Source of the DNA: a virus
Taxonomy: Duplodnaviria; Heunggongvirae; Uroviricota; Caudoviricetes
Strand: one strand, 5' to 3'
DNA: 64,000 nt
IMG/VR virus record: IMGVR_UViG_3300039155_000018
Location: 1 to 64,000 of that record
This document shows, piece by piece, positions 1,276-43,989 of the stretch (position 1 is its first letter; every line of letters starts with the position of its first letter). The notes under the pieces were generated by a model that was not told the DNA's origin, did no database searches, and was given only the letters and a program-made list of their open reading frames with translations. A program made the position numbers and the translations under genes.

Positions 1276-1557
1276 ATGTTAAAGATTACGCTTGAAGGTG
1301 GTATTGAAGATATTGAAGGTCTTCTTGGGGATCAAGAAGATACTTATCCCGATATTGTTCTTATGGGCAAGCATTTCTCACTGATCTCTTGTGATATTCA
1401 TCGTTGGATTGGGGCAGGCGACATCAAGGTTGTATTTTTTGGTCTGCCAAACCTGAATCTTCAAGAAGAGGCAGTAGCAGAAGATGCTGTTCGTAAAGCA
1501 AAAGAAAGTCTTGAGGCTGCTGAAGCTACTCTGAAGAAGATTAAGGAGAAGAAGTGA
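1276..1557 (+). CDS. hypothetical protein
   Basis: A 93-aa ORF preceded by the translation-initiation region taggaggttttaga. The same string precedes the ORF at 2252. Confidence 0.5.
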   Translation: MLKITLEGGIEDIEGLLGDQEDTYPDIVLMGKHFSLISCDIHRWIGAGDIKVVFFGLPNLNLQEEAVAEDAVRKAKESLEAAEATLKKIKEKK

Positions 1558-3669: not shown

Positions 3670-4706
3670 GTGTAGGTATTGTTTTGGGAACCTTCCTACC
3701 TTTCCATAAAGGGCATGAGATGCTGATTAACTTCGCTAAGAACTACCCCGGCTGTGACAATTTGGTTGTCATCCTATCTTCTCGTTCGTTTGAGCCTATC
3801 ACTGGCCTTATGCGTTGGCTTGCTCTAAAATCCACATTTGAGGATGTATACATCTACCATCACGAAGACGACAATGCTCCTCAGAACCCTAAATCAGAAA
3901 ATGATGTGGAATTTTGGGACTACTGGAAGAAGGTAATTCGTCGTTCTATGTGGAGCTTTGAAGAGACTGATCCATGCTTTGTGTTTTCTTCGGAGTCTTA
4001 TGGTAGCAAGGTAGCTTCTTTGTTTGAAAACTGTCGTCATATTATGTTTGATTTCAATCGAGAGCATCAACAAGTCTCCGGCACTGTAATTCGAAACAAT
4101 CCGTTGGTGTTCCATGACAGCTTGAATATTCACATGGCGCGTTATTTGAAGAAACAGTTTGTTTTCTTTGGTGCAGAGAGTGTAGGTAAGACTACGTTCA
4201 CAAACGATGTGGCTGAATACTTCAATGCTAACATAACTGTGGAATATGCTCGGCCTTATTTGATGAGTCTTGAAGATAAAACTGTCACTGAAGAGAAGAT
4301 GGTTGATATCTTCAATGGACAGCATGCTCTTGAGGATATGGATCGTAACACTCTGTCTGGGAAGATTCTCAGTTTTATGGATACAGATATCCTCTCCACT
4401 TTCGGTTATGCTGAAATGATGGGGATGGATAGTTCTAATTTTGAGAATTTCAAGCTAAACACCGCAGATCGTGTTTATTTCGTACTCGGACAAGAGGAAG
4501 TATCTTTCGAAGAAGACATACTTCGTTACGGTGGAGATAGACGAGAGAGTAGTGATGAGTTCTGGCTTGATCTTCTGAAACGATACGGTGTGAAGGAAGA
4601 GAATATCCATTACGTGACAGGAGAATTCTTCCAGCGTCAACACTATGTGAAGAGTGTGGTACTAGAACATCTAGACAAACAATTTTATTTTGAGAGGGAA
4701 GTATGA
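3666..4706 (+). CDS. nadR: NadR-like bifunctional NMN adenylyltransferase / ribosylnicotinamide kinase
   Basis: The N-terminus has GTFLPFHKGH, the (H/T)xGH nucleotidyltransferase motif. A central FFGAESVGKTT Walker A fits the RNK domain. The 346-aa size fits NadR without the HTH domain. Confidence 0.65.
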   Translation: MSVGIVLGTFLPFHKGHEMLINFAKNYPGCDNLVVILSSRSFEPITGLMRWLALKSTFEDVYIYHHEDDNAPQNPKSENDVEFWDYWKKVIRRSMWSFEETDPCFVFSSESYGSKVASLFENCRHIMFDFNREHQQVSGTVIRNNPLVFHDSLNIHMARYLKKQFVFFGAESVGKTTFTNDVAEYFNANITVEYARPYLMSLEDKTVTEEKMVDIFNGQHALEDMDRNTLSGKILSFMDTDILSTFGYAEMMGMDSSNFENFKLNTADRVYFVLGQEEVSFEEDILRYGGDRRESSDEFWLDLLKRYGVKEENIHYVTGEFFQRQHYVKSVVLEHLDKQFYFEREV

Positions 4707-5340: not shown

Positions 5341-5594
5341 GCATGGAAAGATTCCAAAGCACTTGGGGAGAATTGTACAACCCTTGGAAACATTGTAACA
5401 CCATCAAAGAGCGCTTAGGTTTCTTGGAAGAGTTAGAGCGTAAATTACATAGTGGAGATTATGAAATCGTGGAGGTGTGGACCCCTGTTGGTTATCATGA
5501 ACCTTCTTGCCCACGTATTTGTGAGATCAATGAGCTTGGGAAGCATAGGTTTGTACCTAATCCGAATTGTAAGGAGAAATTTGGTGAGCATTAA
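5331..5594 (+). CDS. hypothetical protein
   Basis: An 87-aa ORF with conserved-looking Cys/His content. Confidence 0.4.
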   Translation: MAISMERFQSTWGELYNPWKHCNTIKERLGFLEELERKLHSGDYEIVEVWTPVGYHEPSCPRICEINELGKHRFVPNPNCKEKFGEH

Positions 5595-6303
5595 AGAAGA
5601 ACTGAAGTCAGAAAACCAAGTAAAGCACTGCCGTGTATGCAAAGATGAAATCAACTGGACCAACACTGCCTCTGAAGATGGTTGGAGGGAGGTAGGGATC
5701 ACCTGCACTTGTGAGAAGTGCTTTGACAATCTCACTTTTGACATGGAAGAAAATATCGAAGAACTCTCTTACAATGTTAAGAAGCTGGTCCGAGAGTCAC
5801 CGAGTGTAGTTCTTGCAGGAGGGGCGCTGCGGATGCTTGTTGATCCTTGTAACGAAGAAATCTGCGACTATGACCTATTTGTGACAGATCAATCTGTACT
5901 TGAAAAACTGCTAACTGACATTCACGCTCTTGGTTACGTAAAAGTATTTGAATGTCCAAAACGAGAGCTATTCACGTTTGTAACGGAAGATGAGCCTAAA
6001 ATTCAAGTGATTAATAAGCGTCCTTACAAAGATTGTGAGGATATCATCTCATCTTTTGACATTACCGCTTGCTGTGCAGCTTGGGACGGAGAAAATTTCT
6101 ACAAGCATGAGCGCTTCGTCTTTGATGTACTGAACAAGCGCGTCAACTTAAATGTCGTGGAGTATCCAAACGCGACGCTGAAGCGTATTGTAAAGTACGT
6201 GCTGAAAGGGTACACTCTTACGCCCCAAGCCAATGACTTCTTCATCTCATCTGTTAATCAGATGGAGCTGACAGAAGAAAATCGTGTAATGTATGTAGAT
6301 TAG
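5583..6303 (+). CDS. Pol-beta-superfamily nucleotidyltransferase (CCA-adding / poly(A) polymerase head-domain-like)
   Basis: It carries LAGGALRMLVD followed by DYDLFV. This is the GGxxRD...DxD catalytic signature of class-II CCA/poly(A) polymerase head domains. The start was moved to GTG 5583, which has an AAGGAG RBS, because the upstream part of the track ORF overlaps the previous gene. Confidence 0.45.
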
Positions 6304-16816: not shown

Positions 16817-17707
16817 TTACTTGTTCATGTGGAAGACAGGAAGAGGCTTACCTTCACCACCCATGATCGTGGTAGGCAGACGACCATCCCACTTCTCAGC
16901 TTCGATCTTACGAATCTCTAGTTCGCGCAGCTTCAGGACACGCGGGTCAACAGATTCTGCAAGGGTACGTTGTGCCATTGCTTCAGTTTCAGCACGTTCC
17001 TTCTCAATGGCACGTTGCAGACGAGCCTCTTGTAGCTCGCGTTCCAGCTTCACCTTAGAGATTTGCAGTTGAGCCTCTTCCTGTTGGATGGCTTCACGAC
17101 GCTCTGCTGCTGCTTCTTGTGCATTAGTAATGATTTTCGGATAGCGGATATCAGTCACACCCACGAATCGAACAGAGAATGGGGTACGCTCTTCAATCAC
17201 CTTGCTAATGTTGTTTCGCAGATCAGCATTAATCTTTTCATTGCTAGAAGCAATCTCCCCGATACTAAACTTGCTCAGGTATTCGCGCACCTGCGCTTGA
17301 ACAATCTGTGCAGCGTAAGTTTTGTAAACAGTGGCACTATCAATTACAGAGACATAATTGCTTTGTTGTTGCGGAGAAAGAGACGCAAACAGTTCCTCAG
17401 TCTTACGCGGGTTGATTGACAGCGTGGTACGAACCACAACATCCAGATTCAGCTTATCTTCAGGAATGAAGATAGTTAGGTTTTCAGTGTAAGTTTTGTC
17501 AGAAGCATCGAGCAGGACCAGCCGATCACAGTAGGCCACACAAGGTTCCAGTCGAAACTTGGAAGTGGGGATCAGGGTTTCCTGATAACCACTCTTGGTC
17601 ATGATCTTACCTACGTGAGCAGGCGGCACCTCTACAGCCTCGCCACAGCCTACCAGAATGCTTGCTGCAAGAGCCAGAGCACCAAATTTAACCATTTTCA
17701 TATTCAC
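16817..17707 (-). CDS. SPFH/band-7 (stomatin/prohibitin)-like lipoprotein
   Basis: The signal peptide has a lipobox (LVGC). The C-terminal region is an Ala/Glu/Arg/Gln-rich coiled coil of the kind found in band-7 proteins. Confidence 0.4.
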   Translation of the reverse strand: MNMKMVKFGALALAASILVGCGEAVEVPPAHVGKIMTKSGYQETLIPTSKFRLEPCVAYCDRLVLLDASDKTYTENLTIFIPEDKLNLDVVVRTTLSINPRKTEELFASLSPQQQSNYVSVIDSATVYKTYAAQIVQAQVREYLSKFSIGEIASSNEKINADLRNNISKVIEERTPFSVRFVGVTDIRYPKIITNAQEAAAERREAIQQEEAQLQISKVKLERELQEARLQRAIEKERAETEAMAQRTLAESVDPRVLKLRELEIRKIEAEKWDGRLPTTIMGGEGKPLPVFHMNK

Positions 17708-18007: not shown

Positions 18008-18388
18008 TTACACGCTTTCAGGGCGTTGTACAAGCGACTCTTTCCAATCGCAATCTCCGGGGATGAAAGATTTGAAGCTGCAAGCCTCTACCCAATGATG
18101 ACCCTCTTCCCACCTATGATAGCCAGCAGTCGGCTCTTTTTTGTACAAGAAAGCCTCACCATCCGCATCGGTGGCCATCAAGTTATAATCGGGATGTACA
18201 TGGTCCCAATTGATAGAAGGCTTGGTAGGCTCCTTGATGCGGTACTCTATTGCATCCCAATTCCATGAAGCGAGCCGCCCTTCAAGTACCCTCCAGATGT
18301 GCTCGCCCTTCCGCCGAAATTCAACACTCTTCCCCTCCGCAAAAGCTTGCATCACCTCGATAGCTTTCAGGGTTTGTTCTTCGTTCAT
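18008..18388 (-). CDS. hypothetical Trp-rich protein
   Basis: A 126-aa ORF. Confidence 0.45.
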   Translation of the reverse strand: MNEEQTLKAIEVMQAFAEGKSVEFRRKGEHIWRVLEGRLASWNWDAIEYRIKEPTKPSINWDHVHPDYNLMATDADGEAFLYKKEPTAGYHRWEEGHHWVEACSFKSFIPGDCDWKESLVQRPESV

Positions 18389-18561: not shown

Positions 18562-18789
18562 TCATTTCACCTGCACACACGTATAGATGACGTTGGCTCG
18601 CTGGTGTCCTCGTGACAAACCAAGTATGCGCTTACCAGCAACTTCACACTCTTGTTGAGATGAGAAGCCTTGAATGGTTTGCGAGGATACTGCCGCAGCC
18701 TCTCCTGAGACATTAGGATCATTACTCACATAGATTGCTAGAATCAGTGCCCACATATTTATTCTCCTCTTAACTCCAGAGTGAATCAC
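18562..18789 (-). CDS. small secreted protein
   Basis: A 75-aa ORF with a signal-like N-terminus. Confidence 0.35.
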   Translation of the reverse strand: MIHSGVKRRINMWALILAIYVSNDPNVSGEAAAVSSQTIQGFSSQQECEVAGKRILGLSRGHQRANVIYTCVQVK

Positions 18790-19465
18790 GAATTTTAATG
18801 AGACGGATCAGCATATCTTCCTCTTCGGCTTTGAACTGCTGCTCCATTTGAGTATGTTTCTCGTTGAGTTCTTCCCACTCGCTGTCATGTGTACTACTGA
18901 ACAGGTTCTCACCCCTCTCTCGCTTACGATCATAGTAGGCCATCAGACCACTGTCAACGAAAGTGTCTCGATCTTTATTAGCCTTCCACCAATCGTAGAT
19001 CGCCTTCTGTTCCAGAGCAGCCTCATGTTGCCAGAGACAGTCTTCCTTCAGATCATCACTGAGTTCCCAAGCGAATGTATCGAGTCCCTTCTCATCCTCA
19101 ATGAAGCGCTCCAGAGAAGTGAACAGACACACAGGGATGCGGTGGCTAAGGTCGCACCACTCCCCAACAGGCAGGTTACCACCGAGTACGTGGGAATTAG
19201 ACTTCCAGTTCTTATAGAACACGCCTACAGAGTAGAACAGGTTGGGGATAAAGTACACAGCATCCTGCATTTTGTCAAGGGCGGTGTCAGTGAGCCAATA
19301 GGTGAAAGGTGCCCTCTGTTTGCAATCCTTCTCATACTCGTCCCAACCTTCAAAGCTAAGAGCTTGAGGGTTATGGAGTCCCGCTTTGGTGCGGAGCCAC
19401 TTGGAGAAACGAGAGTTGGACCAGTAATTCCACGCAGCCTGTTTACGGTAATATTTCAGTGCCAT
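18770..19465 (-). CDS. hypothetical protein
   Basis: A 231-aa ORF. Confidence 0.45.
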   Translation of the reverse strand: MALKYYRKQAAWNYWSNSRFSKWLRTKAGLHNPQALSFEGWDEYEKDCKQRAPFTYWLTDTALDKMQDAVYFIPNLFYSVGVFYKNWKSNSHVLGGNLPVGEWCDLSHRIPVCLFTSLERFIEDEKGLDTFAWELSDDLKEDCLWQHEAALEQKAIYDWWKANKDRDTFVDSGLMAYYDRKRERGENLFSSTHDSEWEELNEKHTQMEQQFKAEEEDMLIRLIKIRDSLWS

Positions 19466-19534: not shown

Positions 19535-19777
19535 TTATTTAGCTGTCAAGCAGTTTTTGCAAAGACAAGTAGAATCTTCTACAGGCTCTGGGAGCGGGAG
19601 GAAAGTAGCTGTTGAAGTTACCTCTCCCATGCACCAGCAAGCACTACCACTTTTCCCGTCAAGCATTGCGCAGTATGTACCTTTGTTGCATTCAGGGCAG
19701 GAGTGGGTTGTAGTGCGTTGCTGAATCTCCTTCAATAGCTGCATTCGAGCGTCACCAGTTGAGTTCACATGCACCAC
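19535..19777 (-). CDS. Cys-rich zinc-ribbon protein
   Basis: It carries CPECN...CWC...CLCKNC. It lies directly upstream of the RNR N-terminal ORF. Confidence 0.4.
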   Translation of the reverse strand: MVHVNSTGDARMQLLKEIQQRTTTHSCPECNKGTYCAMLDGKSGSACWCMGEVTSTATFLPLPEPVEDSTCLCKNCLTAK

Positions 19778-20993
19778 CTGAACAAGCTTGAGCGCCCATA
19801 CTATCGACTTCTACAAACTTCTTCTCTTGTAGCTCTACAGAAAAATCTACATTCTGCACAGTCCGTTCGATTGTCTTCCACTTGTGAAGGTTGAAGCAAT
19901 CCTTTAGGCAGTTTGTCATTTCAAGAACATCATTGTTAAAGTAATTGTTAGCGAACTTTTTAGCGCGTCGCACCCAATCACGTTTCAACAGGTCTTCCTT
20001 TGCTTCAGGATCAAGCTTCAAGCCCCAGCCGTTGACTGTATCACAAGCCACCCACAGATTGTTGTTAAAGGCGTGCAGGCCATCTACAATCAAACCAGAC
20101 GCAAACATGCTAGCTTCGCCGTATTTATCCATAATCTGTTGTGCCGTGAACACTTCAGTGAACGGGGCTTGTGGGTATGCCTTATCACCCATCGCACTTA
20201 GCAAAGAGATACCAGCAAACCACTTACGGTTGTCGTAGATGTATTGCTCCACCTCGTTCCAGTCATCAACTGTAATGGTATTGGATACATTGTGCCGAAG
20301 ATTCGGATCAACACACAGCTCCACGTTAGTGCCATGCTCCACCCAATACTGCTGAGCCAGCTTCACATACTCTAGTTGTTTAACCCCCATCAAATCCTTC
20401 TTATAGATGCTACCTTCCTTACTGACAATCGGGAAGCTAACAACTTTGTCGGTTCCGGTATTAGACCACACACTGTTTTCCACCATCTTAGGGTTCTTTT
20501 CTATCATAAGGTGGAGCACGTCGTCTTGGTCATTCATCTGCACGTTACGGAAGTACATCGGAGAATGTTCCCCATGAATACCAGATGCAGTTCCAAGCAG
20601 GGTTGATGCGTTGCCCGACGGCTTTACACAAGTTGTACGAGCTGCCTGATTAATACCAATCATCTTTGCAACAACCTTGTTCCACTCTTTAACTACTTCG
20701 GCGCCGTCAACCATATTCTGCTTATCGAACAACACTTCAGGGTTATTCATCCAGCCGGTAATGCTTACGCCAATTAGTGCTTCCCGTTCAATAATCTCCT
20801 TAGATGCAGCAGAAAGATATTTAAAGTCAGTGTATCCTGCTTGTAGAGTACCAATAATCGAAGCAGCTTTGCAATTCGCAAGAAACTCTTCTCGGCTGTT
20901 GCAAGCAGAGCCACTAATTTCGCACAGGTTACATGCTTGGAAACCACTTCGCCCATCTGCCGTTTTCGGCAGTTTGCCAATCTCTACACCCAT
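19752..20993 (-). CDS. ribonucleotide reductase catalytic subunit, C-terminal ORF (NrdA/NrdJ-like part b)
   Basis: It has ACNLCEI, the NxCxE active-site motif, and the C-terminal redox pair CSGGAC, which resembles the CxSGAC tail of NrdA. It has its own AGGAG RBS and ATG. Confidence 0.75.
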   Translation of the reverse strand: MGVEIGKLPKTADGRSGFQACNLCEISGSACNSREEFLANCKAASIIGTLQAGYTDFKYLSAASKEIIEREALIGVSITGWMNNPEVLFDKQNMVDGAEVVKEWNKVVAKMIGINQAARTTCVKPSGNASTLLGTASGIHGEHSPMYFRNVQMNDQDDVLHLMIEKNPKMVENSVWSNTGTDKVVSFPIVSKEGSIYKKDLMGVKQLEYVKLAQQYWVEHGTNVELCVDPNLRHNVSNTITVDDWNEVEQYIYDNRKWFAGISLLSAMGDKAYPQAPFTEVFTAQQIMDKYGEASMFASGLIVDGLHAFNNNLWVACDTVNGWGLKLDPEAKEDLLKRDWVRRAKKFANNYFNNDVLEMTNCLKDCFNLHKWKTIERTVQNVDFSVELQEKKFVEVDSMGAQACSGGACELNW

Positions 20994-21084
20994 CTTGTTA
21001 CTCCTAATCTCTTAGGGGCTTAATCATTTCTGTTAAGCTCACATATTTTCACATGTGTGCGGACTATATCACCACCCTAGTCTC

Positions 21085-21765
21085 TTAGGGGCTAACCGTA
21101 CGGAAACTCTCATGGATTTTATATTGGAAGCTAGGTAACACATGCGGAGCAACCATTTCCATAAACTTGTAAAAATCCTTCATTCGAAGGCGCAGATAGT
21201 AATACTGATTCTGCCTATTAATGTTGAACTCAAGGTCAAGCTTTTCTTTCAAAGCTTTCTTCAGGATAAACAAATCCCCATAAGAAAGTCGTTTCATATT
21301 CAAGGTAACATTGTAGCTCCCGTTAACCAACCCCCTTTTAGGGTCAGGTTTAGTTGTCACAAAAGAGCCGTCGCACATGTAGAGGATTGCCAACGCCTCT
21401 GCGTCCAGCATCTTCAAAGCGTGCGGGTCAATCCCTTTATACTTTTCCGTATAAATTCGCCCATGAAGCGTAGTCAAAAGCGGGTGACGCTTACTCTCCA
21501 GCCGCAATTGAGGCTTACGGTCACACCCGTCAACATTGTAATCCTTCCTTTCAGAAACCCTACACCCAGTGATTTGCTCAAGAACATTTTTGCAGAAGAG
21601 AATATAATCCTCGTTATCTCTTTTCATGTTCATGGCAAAGAAGGCATTAGTCCCCTCTGTACGGTTCGGTGGAAAGTACAACCCACCGTCACCCATAACA
21701 ATGTAGCTGAGCAGTTTTACAAGTTCTTTCTTATTCACAGTTTCCATAGTCTCTACACTTCCCAT
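21085..21765 (-). CDS. LAGLIDADG-family homing endonuclease inserted in the RNR gene
   Basis: A single LLSYIVMGDGGLYF LAGLIDADG-type motif lies near the N-terminus. The 226-aa gene sits between the two RNR ORFs on the same strand. Confidence 0.55.
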   Translation of the reverse strand: MGSVETMETVNKKELVKLLSYIVMGDGGLYFPPNRTEGTNAFFAMNMKRDNEDYILFCKNVLEQITGCRVSERKDYNVDGCDRKPQLRLESKRHPLLTTLHGRIYTEKYKGIDPHALKMLDAEALAILYMCDGSFVTTKPDPKRGLVNGSYNVTLNMKRLSYGDLFILKKALKEKLDLEFNINRQNQYYYLRLRMKDFYKFMEMVAPHVLPSFQYKIHESFRTVSP

Positions 21766-21868
21766 ATCGGGTTAGCACGGGATTGTCTTCGCCTTTGAGC
21801 GGTCAGAGTTTCCCCGTTTTTAGGTTAGTTATTCAAAGCAGATCACTCTGCTAGGCCGCTAGTAGTTC

Positions 21869-22870
21869 TTAGTGAACAGTCAACGGATTGTAGGTAAATT
21901 CAAGATTCTCAGTAAAGATAAAAGCAGGCTCCCCGTAGTCACGTACAGACTTCATAATGTTTGCCCACTCTTCACGAGTAATTTCGTCGCGCAATAGCAT
22001 TACACTATTGTTACTTCGGCCTCTGGAGGGGTTGGTGATAAACCAATCTCCAGTTTTAGCCTTCAGCATCTCGTCGTCATCTTTAGAGAAGAGACAAATT
22101 GTTGCGCTCCTGCGAACACCGCCCGAAAGAACAGCGTCTGCCATAAACATTACAAAGTCATAAGCTGTAATCGGCTTCATTGCTACGGACTCTTTACTCT
22201 CTGCAATCTGCGCATCCAACAACTGCTCACACTTCTGTAAAGCAATCCGCAGACCGTCTGGACCCGGAGCTTTAAATCCTCCGCTAATCTCTGCACCTTT
22301 GGGGCGAATCTTGCTGAAGTCGAAGTGAACCTTACAACCCTTGTACTCTGGGAATGTACCACCATCCTCAAAGTAGCTACTGAGCAGCACACCAAAAGAA
22401 TCAGCCCAGCCTTCAATACTGTCTGGGATGGTGTAGACCTTGCTCTTTTTATCGAAACGTTTCTGAATTTTAGGAAGCTTTGCTACGTGGTGCTTTTGCA
22501 CGCTGAAGCCGACTCCACATCCACACAACAGCAAATACATCGACTCCTGAAACGCTGCTGCTCGGTCAATGTGAGTTGACACGCAGTTGTAGAGCCGGGC
22601 GTTGTGCTTGAAGAGTTGTTCACCGCCAAACTGCAAAGCTCGTTGAGCGCCTAGAACACTTTTCTTCTTATAAGCATTTTCTGCAAACTGAATAAGTTCT
22701 CCTAGTTCTGTAGTCATTACATCTTTATATTTGATGCGGTGCATATTCATTACACGTTCTACAGATTCTTCCCAAGTCTCGTAACGACCCTCGCCATCCA
22801 GCCACCGGGAGTAACCCATGTAGAATTTGGATTGGGCCATCATTTCTTTACCAACACCGCTGTTAATCAA
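21869..22870 (-). CDS. ribonucleotide reductase catalytic subunit, N-terminal ORF (part a)
   Basis: It carries LSGGVRRSATICLF, resembling the GGVRGGAATLFYP region of class I/II RNR alpha, and an upstream LLCGCGVGFSV candidate for the first active-site Cys. It ends at an in-frame stop about 100 nt before the endonuclease gene. Confidence 0.65.
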   Translation of the reverse strand: MINSGVGKEMMAQSKFYMGYSRWLDGEGRYETWEESVERVMNMHRIKYKDVMTTELGELIQFAENAYKKKSVLGAQRALQFGGEQLFKHNARLYNCVSTHIDRAAAFQESMYLLLCGCGVGFSVQKHHVAKLPKIQKRFDKKSKVYTIPDSIEGWADSFGVLLSSYFEDGGTFPEYKGCKVHFDFSKIRPKGAEISGGFKAPGPDGLRIALQKCEQLLDAQIAESKESVAMKPITAYDFVMFMADAVLSGGVRRSATICLFSKDDDEMLKAKTGDWFITNPSRGRSNNSVMLLRDEITREEWANIMKSVRDYGEPAFIFTENLEFTYNPLTVH

Positions 22871-23525: not shown

Positions 23526-23807
23526 TTACTTCTTAAAATAAAAATCTACAAGGGTGTTGAATGCCTTCCACACCTCTTTCTCTTGCTCTGTGGCTTCTCG
23601 TAGAACATAAGAGTGCTCTGTGTAATCAGGGAATACATCAGCACACCACACACTTCCTTGAAGCTCTACAAAATCTCCATCGTGGGGAAAGAGAGATTCT
23701 AGCCACTCCATCTTCATCTTCACAATCTGATATTTATTAGGTTCTGCCATTAGTATTCTCCGATTACTTAGGAATGTATTCACTAAGATCGACCGAAGGA
23801 TGTCCAA
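23526..23807 (-). CDS. hypothetical protein
   Basis: A 93-aa ORF. Confidence 0.4.
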   Translation of the reverse strand: MDILRSILVNTFLSNRRILMAEPNKYQIVKMKMEWLESLFPHDGDFVELQGSVWCADVFPDYTEHSYVLREATEQEKEVWKAFNTLVDFYFKK

Positions 23808-24249
23808 TCCGCTTCATGATCTTACCGGCAGAGTTTACCACAACGTAGAAAGGAACTCCATGATGGTAGTTGGTATTGATGAAATATTCCTTATCGTCTC
23901 GTTCTTCCAATGCTTCCTTCACTTCTACAGCTTCTGCATGACTGCTGTAAATCTTGAGGAAATTGTTGTCGTTCACTGCTTGCATAGCACCTTCAAAATC
24001 GAAGCCTGCAACTTCAAGGCGATGAATCCCCTCCATCAGAACAACGAACACATCACAGAATTCTTTAAGCAGGTGGTTATAATCTCCCTCATGTGATGCT
24101 TCTTCCACTTCAAGACCTTCTTCTTTAATGAGAGCAGCCTGAGAGATGATGCTCCGATCAAAGTCTAGGGTGTAGGCAGGGTGTAGGACGTTCCCTGCTT
24201 TACGATTGAACTCAATTACTTGCTTTGCTTGTTGAATCAGGTGTTTCAT
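23764..24249 (-). CDS. MazG-like nucleotide pyrophosphohydrolase candidate
   Basis: It is all-helical and acidic. An EEGLEVEEASHEGD ... KEFCD pattern resembles the EExxE...ExxD metal site of MazG/HisE. Confidence 0.3.
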   Translation of the reverse strand: MKHLIQQAKQVIEFNRKAGNVLHPAYTLDFDRSIISQAALIKEEGLEVEEASHEGDYNHLLKEFCDVFVVLMEGIHRLEVAGFDFEGAMQAVNDNNFLKIYSSHAEAVEVKEALEERDDKEYFINTNYHHGVPFYVVVNSAGKIMKRIGHPSVDLSEYIPK

Positions 24250-24257
24250 GTTTCTCC

Positions 24258-25181
24258 TTAGTCTAGATGCTTTACAAATTCTTCACGTACAGTTTTGGTT
24301 ACTTCATTCTGTAATGATTTACTCCACAGCTTGTAGTTTTCTTCTACAACCTTCTTTACATCTGTACTTGTCTCTTTCTGGAAATCCTCAAGAATATCTT
24401 GAATTGTTAGACCAAGAACCTTCGGGAAATCTTTATTGGTGATTTGACCAATCTTACTAATCACATTACTTACTCGTTGGGGAGAATTATACTCCAGAAT
24501 ATTATCAAGTAAAGCTTGTTCTACTTCACTCAGACCAACGGCAGGTTTATGTTCTTTCTTGTTCTTCTTTTCCGTAAATGCTTCCGTTTTGTTCTTGAAG
24601 TATACGCGACTACCATTCTTAAACCAAGCAGGAATTACTGGTTCAATCACCACACCTTCTGCGAAGTTTTCACCTTCAAAACCCTTTTGGGTCAGGAGCG
24701 ATTGGAATTTGTTCTCTGCATCCATACATCCCTTGAAGAAACCTATGTAGAGAATGGGAGTGAAAGGAATGCCTATTTCGTAGGCAAGCCGAGCAGAATC
24801 AACTTTATTTAGGATAACACCATCAACTACGAATTCAAAAGCTGCGAAGTCTTTCTCGCCGTATACAACCTCTTTCTGAATACCTTGCCCATGCAGCTCA
24901 CCGTAAATCACAATCATGAAACAAGGGTTATTATTGTACCAATCCTTAATCTTCTGCTCATACTTGTTAATCACAGATTGACAATTGTAGAAAGTCCCCT
25001 CTACGAATTGACTACGAGATGCAACCTTAAAATCTTTCCCATCGTACCAAAAGCTGAAGTTTGCACCATGAATCTTCTCGGTGACGATCCACAACTGCTC
25101 ATCTAGACCTTCCAGCAACACCTTATCAATCAGGTTTTGACGGTAAGTGTTTTCAAGGCTTGTGAATTTCTTAAATTCCAT
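24258..25181 (-). CDS. rnl2: RNA ligase 2 (T4 Rnl2-like)
   Basis: It carries FKKFTSLEN, VTEKIHGANFSF (nucleotidyltransferase motif I KxHG), GELHGQGIQK and YGEKDF. These are near-colinear with T4 Rnl2. The start was taken at the second ATG (MEFKKF). Confidence 0.8.
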   Translation of the reverse strand: MEFKKFTSLENTYRQNLIDKVLLEGLDEQLWIVTEKIHGANFSFWYDGKDFKVASRSQFVEGTFYNCQSVINKYEQKIKDWYNNNPCFMIVIYGELHGQGIQKEVVYGEKDFAAFEFVVDGVILNKVDSARLAYEIGIPFTPILYIGFFKGCMDAENKFQSLLTQKGFEGENFAEGVVIEPVIPAWFKNGSRVYFKNKTEAFTEKKNKKEHKPAVGLSEVEQALLDNILEYNSPQRVSNVISKIGQITNKDFPKVLGLTIQDILEDFQKETSTDVKKVVEENYKLWSKSLQNEVTKTVREEFVKHLD

Positions 25182-25638
25182 CTTTGTTCCTCCTATACAA
25201 TACAATTTCAAATTCTTTATTGCTCACAATCTTAACCCCGTTCTCAGGAACAATCCATGGGTAATCTTCGATTGGGAAGAACACATCTGCTTTCCGCTCG
25301 GGAAGATTGAAGAAGTGTGTGACGTAGATCAAATCCACATGCTCCGCAAGTAGTTTATACGTCTTAGCCCCGCCAATCACCACCTTATCATCCATCCATC
25401 CCCAGCAGACACCTGCTTGGGAGTATGTTTCAAGAGTATCAATATCTTCTCGGTGCAAGACAATCAGTTCGCGGTTGGTCATCTTAGGCAGTGTCTGTGC
25501 TGTACGATACCCAACGATTAACTCCTTCTCTTGGGTAAATCCAGAGAAGAACCAAAGGTCCCGCATGTCCTTGTACAGCAACTCGTCCCCACAACCAATT
25601 CCCCAATCAGGACTCACTGCTACGATTGCTGTTAACAT
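25171..25638 (-). CDS. frd: dihydrofolate reductase
   Basis: It has AIVAVSPDWGIG and VIGGAKTY. The 155-aa size and its position next to thymidylate synthase fit, as in T4 frd-td. Confidence 0.7.
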   Translation of the reverse strand: MLTAIVAVSPDWGIGCGDELLYKDMRDLWFFSGFTQEKELIVGYRTAQTLPKMTNRELIVLHREDIDTLETYSQAGVCWGWMDDKVVIGGAKTYKLLAEHVDLIYVTHFFNLPERKADVFFPIEDYPWIVPENGVKIVSNKEFEIVLYRRNKDGI

Positions 25639-25795
25639 TCAACTCCTCCCGAAGATTTACAAGTTGTGAAATGATATTCTCCAGCTCGGTGACTGGGAAG
25701 GTTATGTAAGCAGTGCCAAAATCCTTCCCATCCTTGATGCACACGTCCTTGAAGGTATTGACAAATACTTCAATCAAAGAACCCCCTGTATTTTA

Positions 25796-26704
25796 TCAAA
25801 TAGCCATACTAGGCTTAGGTGTTCTAAACGGAGTCTTATTGATCTCCAAATCTGTGACAAGGATATCCTCCCACTGAAGTGAAAGCAAGTCCCCCAGAGA
25901 AGAAATTTCCTTGTTAATCAGCACCTTACCATGCTCACCAAATTCGCGTTGTACAGTTTCTTGAGCATATTCTAGCTGGTTATTATACAAGTGAACGTGG
26001 GAGAGGTCTGCACTGAGCGTGCCCATTTCAAACCCGAACATCTTACACAACGCAAGCTGGAACAAACGGTATTGTTGCACAGCAAACGGGAAACCAAAGA
26101 GAACATCCAAAGAACGATTAATCAGCTTCACGTGAAGAACATCTTTCCCCTCTTTATTCGGGAGGACGACATATTCACTTGCCCACCAGCATGGAGTTAG
26201 AGGCATCAAGTCTTCCTCTGATGGGTTCCACAGGCTCACCACCATTCGACGAGAATAGCGGTCAGAACCCAAGGTATCAATCAGTTTTAGAAGTTGATCC
26301 ACGCCTTGGCGAGCGTAGGTGTAGTAGCCACCAAAATCTCGCCACTGTTCACTGTATGCTCTACCAAGATCACCCTCCGGTAGATGGCAAAGGTCCCGGC
26401 TATCCAGAAACTCACGGCTCGTATTACCAGCCCAGAAGTAAATCCCCTTATCTTCCAGAGTCTTAGTATCAGTCTCTCCTTTCAGGAACATCCACATTTC
26501 TTCGAAGCTGAAGCGTGGAGGACAAGAACGAAGAGATGAGAGGGCAAAATCGGTTTCTCCGTCTCCCAGCTTATCATACACCACTTTAGCATCGAAGATA
26601 GCTCGACAACCAATACCTGTACGGTCTGGGATTTCAACTCCATTCTCTAGAACATCCTTGAGAAGCTGGACATAGCCAGATTCCCCATAGTAAACCTTAC
26701 TCAC
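25796..26704 (-). CDS. td: thymidylate synthase
   Basis: It carries DRTGIG, FEEMWMFLKGETDTKTLE and LTPCW, and the C-terminus KPSMAI resembles ThyA KAPVAI. The start was set at GTG 26704 with GGGAGGG upstream, because the N-terminal extension in the track looks like junk. Confidence 0.8.
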   Translation of the reverse strand: MSKVYYGESGYVQLLKDVLENGVEIPDRTGIGCRAIFDAKVVYDKLGDGETDFALSSLRSCPPRFSFEEMWMFLKGETDTKTLEDKGIYFWAGNTSREFLDSRDLCHLPEGDLGRAYSEQWRDFGGYYTYARQGVDQLLKLIDTLGSDRYSRRMVVSLWNPSEEDLMPLTPCWWASEYVVLPNKEGKDVLHVKLINRSLDVLFGFPFAVQQYRLFQLALCKMFGFEMGTLSADLSHVHLYNNQLEYAQETVQREFGEHGKVLINKEISSLGDLLSLQWEDILVTDLEINKTPFRTPKPSMAI

Positions 26705-27008
26705 CGGAGATACCCTCCCGTTCAAAGAACTCGTCAAGAGAGATAAAATCCACCACAGAACTAACAGTAGGATCAACTAGCACCTCGATTGAGTGGTATC
26801 CGTCACCATCATCCGACAGGTGAACTTCCCAGCCAGCAGTACCTATCATCCACCGATCCTTCTTAATCACTTTCTTAATGACTCGGTAGATATCAGCTTC
26901 ACATTCAGCAACAGAGCCGTAAGGTTTATACTTGTTATTCGCAAGAATGAACTTAGCTGCTGCTCGTACACTACCTGTCTGAATCGAAACCTTGGAAAGA
27001 TCAATCAC
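26697..27008 (-). CDS. hypothetical protein
   Basis: A 103-aa ORF. Confidence 0.4.
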   Translation of the reverse strand: MIDLSKVSIQTGSVRAAAKFILANNKYKPYGSVAECEADIYRVIKKVIKKDRWMIGTAGWEVHLSDDGDGYHSIEVLVDPTVSSVVDFISLDEFFEREGISGE

Positions 27009-27335: not shown

Positions 27336-27875
27336 TCAGTCTCCGATCTCCACATTATAAATCCGTGCAAGAGCCTTCGCTTGATGGTACAAAGCTTTGA
27401 CCTCGCGCTCAGTAGAGTTCTTTTCACCAAAACGAGCAATGGTTTTAAGAGAGTGCCACAGTGCTCCACTATCATCCCTGCTGCCTGTCTTCCACACCTT
27501 AGCCACAAAGTAAGCATCCATCTTAATCTTACCTGCTATGATGTCTTTTTCCGTCAATGTGTAATAGCTGTCATAATGTGAGTCTGAGTAATGGTTTGGG
27601 GAATTAACAACGTCGTTGTGTACCGTAGTCCGAGCGTCTTCTTCTTCATGGTAGGGGTGTACAGTTACTTTCCCAGATTCTAGCTCATTGTGCCCAACCG
27701 TCCCTGTGTCATCATAAGCTCGGCCTGAGATTTGATTATTATCTAATCCGTAATCGTCACCCGGCAGGTACAGGCGCGCAACCACTACTACAGCCTCACA
27801 GTGAATCCCCTCCCAGTCAATGCCGTAAATCTTTACCATCTGTCCCACTTCAATTGTCTTGTAAAACTCTTCCAT
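27336..27875 (-). CDS. hypothetical protein
   Basis: A 179-aa His-rich ORF. Confidence 0.45.
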   Translation of the reverse strand: MEEFYKTIEVGQMVKIYGIDWEGIHCEAVVVVARLYLPGDDYGLDNNQISGRAYDDTGTVGHNELESGKVTVHPYHEEEDARTTVHNDVVNSPNHYSDSHYDSYYTLTEKDIIAGKIKMDAYFVAKVWKTGSRDDSGALWHSLKTIARFGEKNSTEREVKALYHQAKALARIYNVEIGD

Positions 27876-27932: not shown

Positions 27933-28157
27933 TCAACCTTTTGTATCTTCTAGGTATGCTTCTGAAGCCACCTTCAGATTACGAATCCAAGTAGGGTCGC
28001 TGGAGTCAGCCGCTGAGTTCGTTACAACCCTCCCTGTTTGCAGATAGTCCTCTGCCCACTGGACATGCTGCCCAAAAGGCATTGGCGGGAATATCCCTTC
28101 GGCATAACATTCCATAAACTCTCTAGTGGGAATAACAGGATTAAAATACTTTTCCAT
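27933..28157 (-). CDS. hypothetical protein
   Basis: A 74-aa ORF. Confidence 0.35.
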   Translation of the reverse strand: MEKYFNPVIPTREFMECYAEGIFPPMPFGQHVQWAEDYLQTGRVVTNSAADSSDPTWIRNLKVASEAYLEDTKG

Positions 28158-28920
28158 ACTTCTCCATCAAAAACTCTAGGGAAACAAACATAGGGCAACC
28201 AAACCCATCTTTCACATCGTGGAGCATAGTGACACCCCTGAAATGATTATTACCTTGAAACCCTTTGTAGTCCTCATCAAAAGGATAACAAGCCCCATTG
28301 ATAATACCAATCTGCATTTTACCGTCAATACTTGGGCGAATAGCCACGTCAAGAGTTTGTTTATGCCCGCATACAAAGCTCCGACCTACAGTTTTGAGTT
28401 GATTCATTGCAGTACCACCATAAGGTTTACCTGTGAATGGGTTAGCCAGATAGTGTACAAAGAAAATACCCTCGATTTCAACAGGTTGCAGGAATGGAAT
28501 GACTTCCCAACCTTGATTTTCAAGACCGAGAGTTTCCATTCCTACAAAGCCTTGGAGTTCTGGCATATTACTTGCCAGCCGGTCGAAGCGCTCCTCGTGG
28601 TTTCCCGTACAAAATACTAGGCGAGGATTATACACTTTCTTCTTCGACTGGCGCTGACGTTCTTGCAACTCGCGCAGGGGCGCCAACAGAAGGTCAAGAC
28701 CCTTATTACCAGCAGCAATGTCTGCCTTCAGGCGACGACCTTCAAAGGAAGCTTTACCTTTGTCATAAATACTCAGTGACGGGAAGTCAAAATTGTCTCC
28801 TATATGCACGACAACGTTCGGGCGTTTGTTAACAATGTAGTTCCCTATAGCTGACATGTAGGACAAATCTTCACCGGGCTTACATTGTGTATCTGCCACA
28901 ACTAGAATCTTTTTACTCAA
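28141..28920 (-). CDS. calcineurin-like metallophosphoesterase
   Basis: It has VVADTQ, HIGDNFD and GNHEERF. The start was set at TTG 28920 after AAGGAG. Confidence 0.55.
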   Translation of the reverse strand: MSKKILVVADTQCKPGEDLSYMSAIGNYIVNKRPNVVVHIGDNFDFPSLSIYDKGKASFEGRRLKADIAAGNKGLDLLLAPLRELQERQRQSKKKVYNPRLVFCTGNHEERFDRLASNMPELQGFVGMETLGLENQGWEVIPFLQPVEIEGIFFVHYLANPFTGKPYGGTAMNQLKTVGRSFVCGHKQTLDVAIRPSIDGKMQIGIINGACYPFDEDYKGFQGNNHFRGVTMLHDVKDGFGCPMFVSLEFLMEKYGKVF

Positions 28921-41752: not shown

Positions 41753-42023
41753 AAACCTCTTCCTCCACTGTAGATAAGTTTTCCAGAATCTTTTCTTCCA
41801 CGAGCACTTCGTAATTACTGAAAACGATAATAGCATCTTTCTCTGGAATGTCAACTCCCTCGTCAGATACAGCATAGCACTCAAAATCCACTTCAGCCGG
41901 ATAGCCTTGATAATCCCAATCAGAGGCTTCATCCCATCTGAATGTTCCGGGAATCTCTGGGCAATAATGGGAGATGTGGCACTTGAATGTGTACCCATCA
42001 AGATTGATGTACATCACTGTCAT
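41742..42023 (-). CDS. acidic hypothetical protein
   Basis: A 93-aa ORF. Confidence 0.4.
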   Translation of the reverse strand: MTVMYINLDGYTFKCHISHYCPEIPGTFRWDEASDWDYQGYPAEVDFECYAVSDEGVDIPEKDAIIVFSNYEVLVEEKILENLSTVEEEVYDV

Positions 42024-42523
42024 TTACGCATCCACTTCTTGTAATTTCCCCGAGGGTCAAACCCATCGTACTCTACAAATGTAACGTCTTCACCTCCCAT
42101 TTCTTCATCGATGATTGCGGAGATAATACTCCAGTCACCACCCGCGCGTGCAGCACCAATAGCAGGGATACCGAATCGCAACGACTTTTCACCGAAACGT
42201 TTCTTGATATCCTTGAAACAACTCCGTAGAGCATCATACTCACAAAGTGGTCCACCATTCAATCCTACACCATACCATCGGTACTGGGTGTAAGCATTGA
42301 CAACAACCCCGCCACTGTCAAGACCTGCACAAGAGATTGTTCCCAGCTTGCTGATATCCCAAGCCTTTGTTTCAAGGTCAGCAGCATAAGCTTCTGGGAA
42401 CTCGTCACGGATTGTCTTAGCAATACCGTCTCCCATGTTGTTACCGCAATTGCAACCATGGACAATCACGTCAAATTCACCTTCTTTAAACAACTTAATC
42501 AGGTCCCCTGTAATCTTCTTCAC
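42020..42523 (-). CDS. macro-domain protein (ADP-ribose binding / ADP-ribosyl hydrolase-like)
   Basis: DVIVHGCNCGNNMGDGIAKTI corresponds to the macro-domain VNAANxxLxxGGGVxxAI region. A second Gly-rich stretch GIPAIGAARAGGD follows. The protein is 167 aa. Confidence 0.55.
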   Translation of the reverse strand: MKKITGDLIKLFKEGEFDVIVHGCNCGNNMGDGIAKTIRDEFPEAYAADLETKAWDISKLGTISCAGLDSGGVVVNAYTQYRWYGVGLNGGPLCEYDALRSCFKDIKKRFGEKSLRFGIPAIGAARAGGDWSIISAIIDEEMGGEDVTFVEYDGFDPRGNYKKWMRK

Positions 42524-42777
42524 TCTGTAATCTCCTCAAAACTTCCGTTGGTACGAGTGTAATAGCCATCACCAAGGTCGATGGAACACTCTCCAAAGCT
42601 CAAGAAAGCCTTGGGGCGTACATTGTCCTTATTAAGCTCCAACACCTCTCCAGTGAGCTTACAACGAAACTTACGTCCAATCCATGCTTCTGGACGGAAT
42701 ACGTTGTCTCCTTGTCGTACAACCTCACTCGCTTCTGCATAGTCCATGTCAATCCTCCTCTTCTTGAATAAGTCCAT
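42520..42777 (-). CDS. hypothetical protein
   Basis: An 85-aa ORF. Confidence 0.4.
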   Translation of the reverse strand: MDLFKKRRIDMDYAEASEVVRQGDNVFRPEAWIGRKFRCKLTGEVLELNKDNVRPKAFLSFGECSIDLGDGYYTRTNGSFEEITE

Positions 42778-43345
42778 CTTCCATCATTCGCTTGATAGTG
42801 TCAAGACTCACGTTGTATTTCTCTGACAGCTTCTCTTCACGAGTCTTCTCAGGGATGTTTCGGAAATGAAAAATGTCCTTGATGAAGGCATGACAATATG
42901 TGTGGTTCAGCAGGTCGGTAATAAAAATCACTTCCTGATTCTTGCTCCAATAGGTAATGCGCACCTCATCATTTACACCAATACACATGATGTATTCCTT
43001 ACCTACTTCAAGATCGCCTACAGAGAGGATTTCTTTCGACTCTTTTTCCCCGTAGAATGGAATCAGGCACTCAGGAATTTCTACGCCTTCTTCTTTGACA
43101 GTGAAGTACCAGTATTCTTCTGAGTCACTCCATACCCAAGAGATATCCGCGAGCTGCTCGGTGACTTCCGTACTCCCATTCTCCTTGTAACGCACTCTAC
43201 CGAGGGGCACATATTGCGAGAGCCTAACAGTCCCGAGAAACGGACCCTCTTCCCAAGAATTTAAACTGTCAGCTTTGTTGACAGTTTCCCAAGTTTCCTT
43301 GGTCCACTCATATTCCTTACCCGGAATGTAATATTGCTTAGCCAT
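42749..43345 (-). CDS. hypothetical protein
   Basis: A 198-aa ORF. Confidence 0.45.
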   Translation of the reverse strand: MAKQYYIPGKEYEWTKETWETVNKADSLNSWEEGPFLGTVRLSQYVPLGRVRYKENGSTEVTEQLADISWVWSDSEEYWYFTVKEEGVEIPECLIPFYGEKESKEILSVGDLEVGKEYIMCIGVNDEVRITYWSKNQEVIFITDLLNHTYCHAFIKDIFHFRNIPEKTREEKLSEKYNVSLDTIKRMMEDGLIQEEED

Positions 43346-43989
43346 TACTGCTCCTCCTTTGGAGCGATTGGTTCTCCCCCTATAGCATTTAAAGCTTTTC
43401 TAAGGATGATCGAGTTTACTTGGTCCTCACTACTAGCGCAGCCAAATTTACCCTCAAACCGTTGTTTCATTTTCTGAGGGTGAGGATCACCCCATTCATA
43501 ACCTTCACTTAGAAACATACTTTTAGAGGCAAGAGTCTTCTTGAATGCATTGGTGAGTCGAATATTCATATTAACATCTGCCCAAATCTTGCAGATGGAG
43601 ACATCCATATACTCGATCACTTTAAATTGGCTACCTAGAGTTACAAGCTGGATAAACTGAACCTCCATGCCGGCAATTTTACATTGCCATACACGAATCA
43701 GGGAAGGCATTTTATGATAGAGATTACTCATCTCTCGCACACCACTCGAACTACTTCCATGAATTTCTGAGAGAGTTTTGATTTCCACATCTTTAAAGAC
43801 CTTCTGTAGTTGATTCCTGCAAGCACTCACTGTTGTGGCTGTAGAAACGTAGTAGAAGTCTAGGTCATTACACTCATTTCCAAAATACCAATCACGAGGG
43901 GCACCACCAGCCAGTACGCAATAAGGGTCAATAACCTTCAACTTCTCGTATACACCCTGAGCTGTAGCTTTTTGCTGTTCGATTGTCAT
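43345..43989 (-). CDS. Pol-beta-superfamily nucleotidyltransferase (CCA/poly(A) polymerase head-like), second copy
   Basis: It has VLAGGAPRDWYFG ... NDLDFYY, the GGxxRD / DxD signature. The start was set at ATG 43989 (GGAGGTAAGCGA upstream), which overlaps the stop of 43986..44195. Confidence 0.45.
   Translation of the reverse strand: MTIEQQKATAQGVYEKLKVIDPYCVLAGGAPRDWYFGNECNDLDFYYVSTATTVSACRNQLQKVFKDVEIKTLSEIHGSSSSGVREMSNLYHKMPSLIRVWQCKIAGMEVQFIQLVTLGSQFKVIEYMDVSICKIWADVNMNIRLTNAFKKTLASKSMFLSEGYEWGDPHPQKMKQRFEGKFGCASSEDQVNSIILRKALNAIGGEPIAPKEEQ

Follow-up and report, generated by a model that had tools for sequence, protein, structure and literature searches.

Comparative analysis of an Rnl2-type RNA ligase and two Gad2-family nucleotidyltransferases in a phage related to the Felix O1 and PAK_P1 groups

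Background

Kits for RNA repair have already been described in phages, where an RNA ligase (Rnl1, Rnl2 or RtcB) occurs together with kinases, phosphoesterases, RlaP nucleotidyltransferases (NTases) and CCA-adding enzymes (PMC7824862, Iyer et al. 2021; PMC12776372). Here we analysed a stretch of 64,000 nucleotides (nt), positions 1 to 64,000 of the IMG/VR virus record IMGVR_UViG_3300039155_000018 (Caudoviricetes), hereafter the window, which carries at 24258..25181 a gene for an Rnl2-type RNA ligase and, elsewhere, genes for two small NTases (NTase A and NTase B) and two metallophosphoesterases. An earlier reading of these letters, called here the original prediction, had joined the five genes in a single pathway by which tRNAs cut by host anticodon nucleases would be healed, sealed and given back their 3' CCA ends. 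Since phage kits are already described, this model, even if true, would be a variant of a known theme. We found that the parts had been recognized correctly, all five gene coordinates being exact or within one base, but that the toolkit is unsupported, every comparative test for a coordinated pathway being negative. What the window holds is a new, divergent Rnl2 member in a new phage lineage, two new short members of the Gad2 family, and two phosphoesterases of known types.

Some further systems are relevant for the comparison. The Toprim nuclease OLD of P2 cuts the anticodon stem of tRNA and leaves 5'-phosphate and 3'-OH ends, a single nick of the OLD type is resealed by T4 Rnl1 or Rnl2 without any end-healing, and AriB of the PARIS system cuts tRNA-Lys at one corresponding site (PMC12445682). 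Gad2, the second anti-Gabija protein of Yirmiya et al., is a predicted NTase of 400 amino acids (aa) whose deletion makes phage SPbetaL7 Gabija-sensitive (10.1101/2023.05.01.538930); its mechanism was still given as unknown in a review of February 2026 (PMC12904381). Concerning phosphoesterases, gp48 of phage A10ZJ24 is an early-expressed phosphodiesterase and DNA nuclease, required for phage DNA replication in M. tuberculosis (PMC12287305), and the replication requirement of Bxb1 gp47 comes from Savinov et al., as cited in the same paper.

Our analysis covered gene identities, folds, family links, gene order and phyletic patterns, and it is from these that we infer the activities and in vivo substrates of the five proteins.

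The phage

No nucleotide match to the window was found in a megablast of its positions 20-30 kb against 50,697 GenBank phage records; the phage is therefore new at the nucleotide level and comparisons were made at the protein level. By protein, the closest sequenced relative is Pseudomonas phage vB_PsaM_M1 (89 kb, marine, filed under Ounavirinae; M1 below), in which 35 of the 119 called open reading frames (ORFs) of the window have tblastn matches, and which shares with it the DNA polymerase (68%), a 334-aa protein (71%) and tail and baseplate genes. We place the window in a new phage with kinship to the Felix O1 and PAK_P1 groups and a size of ~85-90 kb, about a quarter of the genome falling beyond the window. 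Genes run rightward at 1-10.5 kb and almost all leftward at 11.7-44 kb, in a block that carries nucleotide-metabolism and replication genes, and structural genes are found from 46 kb.

The RNA ligase

The ligase gene (24258..25181, minus strand) encodes 307 aa, organized as a nucleotidyltransferase domain followed by an Rnl2-specific C-terminal domain. Both corresponding Pfam families, RNA_ligase PF09414 (E 1.3e-16) and T4_Rnl2_C PF18043 (E 2.1e-17, residues 217-295), score above their gathering scores, and the protein matches phrog_548, annotated as RNA ligase, from end to end (E 7.5e-74), as well as the sequence of the T4 Rnl2 structure 2hvq (E 5.7e-40). The start is the ATG at 25181 (MEFKKF), and two aligned homologues open with the same MEF(K/H)KF. 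Motif I reads EKIHGANFSF, and the lysine accepting AMP is predicted to be K36 in EKIHGAN. These two domains, the phrog_548 and 2hvq matches and motif I together confirm the Rnl2 homologue that the original prediction had called unambiguous.

In the alignment with 2hvq, motifs I, Ia, III, IIIa, IV and V follow each other in order, with K36, H38, N41, R56, GE(L), F-E, AEG and KxK in register, and the RVsNViSKiG and qDILE segments of the C-terminal domain are conserved. The residues of T4 Rnl2 that we take to be essential are K35/H37/N40, R55, E99, F119-D120, E204, K225/K227, R266 and D292. In the window protein K35/H37/N40 correspond to K36/H38/N41 and R55 to R56, while E99, E204, K225/K227, R266 and D292 are all kept; F119 D120 reads F E, so that the sole change among these aligned residues is the conservative replacement of D120 by E in motif IIIa. 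With the TIGR02307 equivalog model the protein obtains 173.5 bits, below the cutoff of 197.15, and it is therefore a divergent member, for which exact functional equivalence is less certain, but not family membership. From these sequence comparisons we regard it as a full-length and presumably catalytically intact RNA ligase of the T4 Rnl2 type.

Homologues of this ligase among GenBank phages come overwhelmingly from T4-like phages, and PAK_P1-type phages are absent from the close matches. With the window ligase, the known host range of the Rnl2 family reaches Felix O1- and PAK_P1-related phages.

The two nucleotidyltransferases

NTase B (5584..6303, plus strand; 239 aa) consists of an N-terminal zinc ribbon with four cysteines (C16, C19, C43 and C46) and then a class II-like head and neck of the Gad2 family, and NTase A (43345..43989, minus strand; 214 aa) is encoded near the start of the leftward block holding the replication genes. 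The start of NTase B is the GTG at 5584, not 5583, and that of NTase A is 43989, as fixed by the lengths of homologues. At E <= 1e-3 we collected 170 homologues of NTase A and 82 of NTase B, with lengths of 185-260 aa; those of NTase A include proteins of Phapecoctavirus-like coliphages and of Vibrio, Aeromonas and Klebsiella phages. The signatures are GGALR...DYD in NTase B and GGAPRD...DLD in NTase A, and G-G-A-x-R...D-x-D is invariant across both families. Comparison of the two profiles with hhalign (97.2%, E 4.5e-11) indicates distant paralogues, so that the pair with a GGxxRD...DxD signature noticed in the original prediction stands, with one start shifted by 1 nt.

Both proteins have the class II CCA/poly(A)-polymerase fold with a Pol-beta-type head carrying GGxxRD...DxD. 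A stand-alone protein described as 'CCA-adding enzyme head domain', 2la3, ranks above antibiotic NTases, CD-NTases and MenT toxins, and homology to antibiotic-resistance NTases or CD-NTases, which had been named as the finding that would speak against the prediction, was thus not what we obtained. Sequence profiles of the two NTases reached no solved class II enzyme, and the Pfam family PolyA_pol was matched at E 0.022 by NTase A alone.

The fold does not make them CCA-adding enzymes. No body or tail domains for tRNA binding are present in NTase A or NTase B, whose confident AF2 models end after the neck, and with 214 and 239 aa the proteins have about half the size of the matched PDB chains (~345-520 aa). 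When the necks were aligned by eye with that of E. coli Cca, counterparts of motifs B and C could be recognised (SFDITACCAA; FDVLNKRVNL), while EDxxR, the neck motif D that templates the nucleotide (CTP/ATP), is replaced by EYPNA in NTase B and by GDPHP in NTase A; the region reads GEDPLRVLRVARF in E. coli Cca, VEYPNATLKRIVKY in NTase B and WGDPHPQKMKQRF in NTase A. Residues Y194, P195 and A197 of NTase B are invariant or nearly so in its family, and when the NTase profiles were compared with E. coli Cca by hhalign, the local matches were very weak and lay in the same register. The original prediction of CCA/poly(A)-polymerase-like NTases is correct for the fold; without body and tail, without EDxxR by hand alignment, and with the family link reported below, they are probably not bona fide CCA-adding enzymes.

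This link is to Gad2. With NTase B as tblastn query against GenBank phages, we hit the gene annotated as Gad2 in SPbetaL6 and SPbetaL7, two Bacillus phages (E 4e-5), and the NTase B family profile aligned with residues 14-172 of Gad2 (hhalign 98.3%, E 2e-14; ~30% identity), over a region in which the neck helices and two motifs, GGA...D.D and FD(I/F)T, are aligned. NTase A compared directly with Gad2 gave 68.7% over 40 columns, so for this protein the link runs through NTase B. The label PF26128 is borne by all 82 homologues of NTase B, by many of NTase A and by nearly all of Gad2; it is a precomputed label on the homologues, its identity was established indirectly through those of Gad2, and we found no mention of the accession in the literature. 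The family is almost restricted to phages and prophages. On these profile relationships both NTases are assigned to the Gad2 family; they are probably accessory proteins modifying some 3' end or small molecule, and a role in counter-defence is plausible.

The occurrence of two paralogues is not limited to the window: A-like and B-like genes lie at separate positions in two Vibrio phages, OP793884 (vB_VpaM_R16F) and PV206818 (vB_CoeS_P1), so that the pair recurs in an unrelated phage lineage of ~137-139 kb. One homologue of NTase B, P0182 (302 aa), has an N-terminal HD_4 domain (a RelA/SpoT-type HD hydrolase, E 1.5e-16) fused to the PF26128 NTase domain, an arrangement which recalls the HD domain of E. 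coli Cca and hints that the family may handle phosphorylated nucleotides or 3' ends.

At its 3' side, the stop of NTase A overlaps by 1 nt the start of an ORF of 198 aa (42749..43345), which suggests translational coupling. This ORF was considered as a conserved partner of NTase A and rejected, given that neither the 85%-identical relative (L005/L014) nor any other NTase locus has a homologue of it. Furthermore, 0.8 kb downstream of NTase A a stand-alone Macro domain protein of the Poa1p / SCO6735 type is encoded at 42020..42523 (minus strand), with matches to phrog_335, annotated as phosphatase (E 9.5e-53), to PDB 2afc (E 5.7e-9) and to the macrodomain 5e3b (E 8e-6). Possible functions are the removal of ADP-ribose marks or the breakdown of signals derived from ADP-ribose; in 3 of 72 loci a homologue of it is no more than 10 kb away from the NTase homologue.

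The two phosphoesterases

The phosphoesterase at 1554..2240 (plus strand; 228 aa), an accessory gene, matches Metallophos (E 1e-13), phrog_246, 'NinI-like Ser/Thr phosphatase' (E 1.9e-56), and lambda phosphatase 1g5b over residues 15-227 (E 2.9e-23), and obtains 113 bits with NF008516, below the cutoff. By tblastn it has no homologue in M1. Its matches to phrog_246 and 1g5b agree with the lambda-type PPP phosphatase proposed originally, and we class it by similarity as a putative protein phosphatase of the lambda NinI/PrpA type.

The second one (28141..28920, minus strand; 259 aa) lies in the nucleotide-metabolism/replication block and is a calcineurin-like metallophosphoesterase of the PAK_P1 / Bxb1 gp47 / A10ZJ24 gp48 type, with matches to Metallophos (E 2e-5) and phrog_221 (E 2.9e-68), in agreement with the calcineurin-like phosphoesterase of the original prediction. 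Its start was confirmed against the homologue of M1, annotated as phosphodiesterase (68%); the match to PAK_P1 is 65%. Homologues come mainly from Mycobacterium, Pseudomonas and Acinetobacter phages and fall into three groups: the first (62-68% identity) from M1 and from PAK_P1-like, phiPsa374-like and AM24-like phages, the second (~46-49%) from small Acinetobacter, Pseudomonas and Vibrio phages, and the third (25-31%; 26-31% over ~200 aa) from mycobacteriophages of cluster A, which number in the hundreds and in some of which the protein bears the annotation recombination directionality factor. This third group is the Bxb1 gp47 family. The gene is a core gene of the lineage, and membership in a family with these relatives points to DNA, and not to RNA ends, as the probable substrate.

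Tests of a joint RNA-repair pathway

The five genes are located at 1.5, 5.6, 24.3, 28.1 and 43.3 kb of the window, 3 to 19 kb apart and in different transcription blocks. Rnl2 is 18-19 kb away from either NTase, and the two phosphoesterases, both stand-alone genes, are found at 22 kb and 3 kb from it. Their inheritance is also not joint: M1 possesses Rnl2 (62%) and the phosphoesterase homologous to 28141..28920, without NTase A, NTase B and the lambda-type phosphatase. We then considered related NTase loci of IMG/VR (n=72, 10 kb on each side): none of the 72 has Rnl2 within this distance; homologues of a primase-helicase occur in 44 of them and those of a DNA polymerase in 33. A tRNA gene of any kind was near the NTase in 8 of the 48 loci scanned, with a tRNA array in only one. 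In the window itself ARAGORN found no tRNA gene, and no Rfam family reached its gathering threshold, hence no tRNA array, Y RNA or group I intron. Among the relatives, the 84-kb viral contig L050 has at 18115..18213 a 99-nt ARAGORN prediction of 'tRNA-Pyl' with anticodon CTA (amber-suppressor type), next to tRNA-Arg(TCT); this could be a suppressor tRNA or a false call.

Missing partners were searched for with Pfam domain scans, which took in the plausible ORFs of at least 70 aa at 1-46 kb and passed over a few antisense ORFs that are likely spurious. No polynucleotide kinase, HAD phosphatase, 2H phosphoesterase, RtcB, Tpt1, Hen1 or RlaP was detected in this range, in agreement with the original remark that no kinase was recognized; the only kinase-like P-loop belongs to the AAA_28 domain of a NadR-like protein encoded at 3666..4706. 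The same scans found no Rnl1 either, the two NTases gave no match to PF10127 (RlaP) up to E 10, and the Pnkp model TIGR04075 reached 15 bits, on the generic metallophosphoesterase motif only. A single pathway that heals, seals and rebuilds the CCA end thus receives no support from gene order, co-inheritance, the neighbourhoods and anatomy of the NTases, the family of the second phosphoesterase, or the kinase and tRNA genes, which are missing.

Gene neighbourhood of the ligase

Rnl2 is embedded in an operon for dNTP synthesis with the order ThyA-DHFR-Rnl2-MazG-Grx-RNR (RNR, ribonucleotide reductase). Upstream, on the same minus strand, are thymidylate synthase (25796..26776; Thymidylat_synt, E 9.1e-53) and dihydrofolate reductase (25171..25638; DHFR_1, E 8.3e-14), whose last 11 nt overlap the start of Rnl2, and an ORF of 56 aa is listed with these two genes within 25171..26776 (minus strand). 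A MazG-like NTP pyrophosphohydrolase (23764..24249, minus strand; PRA-PH, E 8.4e-5; phrog_671, E 7.8e-16) starts 8 nt past the Rnl2 stop, with a glutaredoxin-like gene, then the two parts of a class II RNR, farther downstream. In 13 IMG/VR relatives Rnl2 stands at the end of a block with the metallophosphoesterase (MPE), in the order MPE...MazG...RNR...Rnl2, after which convergent tail and lysis genes begin. In several relatives the phosphoesterase is ~7.5 kb upstream of Rnl2 in the same block, which looks like lineage synteny of replication and nucleotide genes and not like a specific pairing. The ligase thus keeps company with genes of nucleotide metabolism and not with genes for the repair of RNA.

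Among the direct neighbours of Rnl2, only one was seen to recur in the lineage, a 231-aa protein without a Pfam family, which is directly upstream of the ligase in at least three relatives (L086, 7330..7569; L087, 7369..7977; L091, 7274..7987); in the window it lies at 18770..19465 (minus strand), 5 kb from Rnl2 and beyond the RNR genes. A polynucleotide kinase beside the phosphoesterase at 28141..28920 was considered as well. Two genes downstream of the latter, the ORF 27336..27875 (minus strand; 179 aa) contains a 'SPNHY...HYDSYY' segment and matches phrog_17613, 'ATPase' (E 2.9e-10), and M1 has at the same position (76276..77109) an annotated 'nucleotide kinase' of 277 aa, followed by a 5'-nucleotidase. 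This candidate was rejected, the ORF having no P-loop and no BLAST similarity to the M1 protein; neither of the two looks like a polynucleotide kinase, and our guess is that both are nucleotide kinases similar to T7 gp1.7.

Other genes of the window were recorded in passing. The class II (B12-type) RNR (19752..22870, minus strand) is split into two ORFs, 21869..22870 and 19752..20993, separated by a LAGLIDADG endonuclease gene (21085..21765; PF03161, E 8.6e-23), with no group I intron at the split according to Rfam; in relatives L087, L089 and L091 the two halves are 4 nt apart and without the endonuclease. Inside the nucleotide-metabolism block are also an SPFH/Band 7 membrane protein with a lipoprotein-like N-terminus (16817..17707, minus strand; PF01145, E 2.2e-10) and a small Cys-rich CWC protein (19535..19777, minus strand; PF14375, E 9.5e-8). 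In the rightward block, a pair for NAD+ salvage (3001..4706, plus strand) comprises a PnuC-like transporter of nicotinamide riboside/mononucleotide (PF04973, E 9.7e-30) and then the NadR-like protein mentioned above (3666..4706), with an HxGH adenylyltransferase motif and the AAA_28 kinase domain (E 2.2e-14); this pair may counter NAD+-depleting defences.

Discussion

Taken together, these data make it fairly probable, in our judgement, that Rnl2 works alone and that the other four genes are separate modules. Among the five proteins, Rnl2 is the only one with a chemistry that its family allows us to state confidently: it would take AMP from ATP on K36 and pass it to a 5'-phosphate, which the neighbouring 3'-OH would attack, sealing the nick in duplex RNA. 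Such an enzyme could act on nicks with ready-made 3'-OH and 5'-phosphate ends and would then need no end-healing partner. Ends of this kind are left by metal-dependent nucleases, for instance the Toprim nucleases of OLD and PARIS (AriB) when they cut anticodon stems of tRNA. The missing kinase need not be a problem, because a single nick of the OLD type carries 5'-phosphate and 3'-OH ends that are directly ligatable. The window would then offer a further case of a phage Rnl2 kept without healing enzymes, which fits recent evidence that the ends made by Toprim nickases in tRNA can be ligated directly.

Several points weigh against this interpretation. The ability of Rnl2 to work alone on 3'-OH/5'-phosphate nicks is deduced from published in vitro data, and the loss of EDxxR in the NTases comes from a hand alignment by eye, whose register is weakly backed by hhalign. 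Lambda phosphatase has 2',3'-cyclic phosphodiesterase activity in vitro, so healing of RNA ends by the protein of 1554..2240 is chemically possible. Rnl2 does occur together with an NTase A homologue on one related IMG/VR contig, 3300011480_000001 (the sole shared contig of three scans), and the contig scans were pattern-based and not exhaustive, which makes absences in metagenomic contigs weak evidence. Finally, tRNA genes, a kinase or Rnl1 might be encoded in the part of the genome beyond the window.

A first alternative is that the ligase and the NTases are directed against the same class of defence, Rnl2 resealing the tRNA-stem nicks of OLD and PARIS and the Gad2-family NTases neutralising systems of the Gabija type (OLD family) by modification of nucleic-acid 3' ends or nucleotides; the genes would share a class of targets and would not form one enzymatic pathway. 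We consider this unlikely. Gad2 has been validated experimentally against Gabija (10.1101/2023.05.01.538930) and NTase B is homologous to its NTase domain, a single 5'-phosphate/3'-OH nick of the OLD type is ligatable by T4 Rnl2 without healing (PMC12445682), and NTase A is encoded close to where the leftward gene block begins; however, the C-terminal region of Gad2 (~230 aa) is absent from both window NTases, the mechanism of Gad2 is reported as unknown (PMC12904381), GajA is reported to cut DNA and not tRNA, ligases cannot repair the double cut of wild-type OLD, and Rnl2 has no positional or phyletic link with the NTase family. A sharper version can be conceived, in which the short Gad2-family enzymes would be terminal NTases acting on RNA or DNA 3' ends to disarm OLD/Toprim defences (Gabija, PARIS, OLD), with Rnl2 resealing the 3'-OH/5'-phosphate nicks of these systems. 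It is a long shot to which we give a minimal chance, but, if true, the phage would carry a previously unrecognised gene set against Toprim nucleases, and the class II CCA/poly(A)-polymerase-like fold would give the first hint of the mechanism by which Gabija is blocked by Gad2.

A second alternative, which we hold to be distinctly unlikely, is that Rnl2 serves nucleic-acid metabolism, for example at junctions of an RNA 3'-OH with a DNA 5'-phosphate or at nicked RNA:DNA hybrids in replication, its placement with dNTP-synthesis genes reflecting shared timing. On a duplex, T4 Rnl2 is able to ligate the 3'-OH of an RNA strand with the 5'-phosphate of a DNA strand, and the gene is inside or at the end of the nucleotide-metabolism/RNR operon in the window and in 13 relatives. 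Against it, the phage already has an ATP-dependent DNA ligase, encoded at 11..748, operon position in phages often reflects timing only, and Rnl2 appears to be accessory in the wider lineage, where the PAK_P1-type phages are not among its close matches.

As for the pathway of the original prediction, the type of ligase already speaks against it, since Rnl2 prefers nicks in duplexes and breaks in the anticodon loop are substrates of Rnl1. That a phosphoesterase opens the 2',3'-cyclic phosphate, a host or undiscovered kinase acts, Rnl2 seals and the NTases rebuild the 3'-CCA is very unlikely: all five gene families are present, kits that combine RNA ligases and phosphoesterases with Pol-beta NTases, CCA-adding enzymes among them, are known from large phages (PMC7824862) and the fold of the window NTases is that of class II CCA/poly(A) polymerases, but no kinase was found, the genes are dispersed over different operons and not co-inherited, the NTases have neither body and tail nor, by hand alignment, EDxxR and group with Gad2, the second phosphoesterase is in a DNA-acting, replication-linked family (PMC12287305), and tRNA genes are absent from the window and from the surroundings of most NTase homologues.

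These results have consequences for annotation. Small phage proteins with GGxxRD...DxD should not be annotated as devoted to tRNA CCA repair, this signature being the mark of a large phage-specific family, PF26128, that includes Gad2. For Gad2 itself, the assignment of the head-neck fold of class II tRNA nucleotidyltransferases and poly(A) polymerase is a modest but usable lead on its mechanism, and so are, for the blocking of Gabija, the minimal forms of 200 aa, of which a phage sometimes has two paralogues.

Comparison with known systems

The concept of the original prediction is found again in the RlaP (PF10127) and RNA ligase modules of Burroughs and Aravind and in the phage kits (PMC7824862; PMC12776372), in which a Pol-beta NTase restores lost 3' nucleotides before an ATP-dependent RNA ligase seals, in answer to host RNases. 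RlaP is defined by the proximity of its gene to RNA ligases, whereas the window NTases have no PF10127 match and are not next to the ligase. The analogy drawn in the prediction was with T4 Pnkp and Rnl1 and with bacterial Pnkp/Hen1, which heal and seal tRNA cut by anticodon nucleases; bacterial Pnkp has a metallophosphoesterase domain similar to lambda phosphatase. Compared with these systems, no kinase, HAD phosphatase, Rnl1 or Hen1 was found in the scanned ORFs of the window, and its ligase is an Rnl2.

Concerning the other proteins, the class II enzymes, namely tRNA nucleotidyltransferases and the bacterial poly(A) polymerase (PF01743; PDB 3h37, 3aql, 1miv, 4wby), are about twice the size of NTase A and NTase B and have a body and a tail. 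Gad2 of the SPbeta-like Bacillus phages continues with its C-terminal region where the window NTases end, at the limit of the NTase domain, and NTase B, unlike Gad2, has the N-terminal zinc ribbon. The mycobacteriophage members of the Bxb1 gp47 / A10ZJ24 gp48 type are distant from the phosphoesterase at 28141..28920, whose motif I reads D-T-Q and not D-x-H.

The nearest described counterpart of the window ligase is T4 Rnl2 (gp24.1; PDB 2hvq, 1s68), with which it shares the same two domains, collinear motifs and the nucleophilic lysine, and both are stand-alone genes with no healing enzyme adjacent. It differs from the Rnl2 of T4-like phages in sequence (~36-37% identity), in its score under the TIGR02307 cutoff and in the D-to-E change of motif IIIa; and, unlike that of T4, it belongs to a phage of ~85-90 kb related to Felix O1 and PAK_P1, where it is placed inside an operon for dNTP synthesis.

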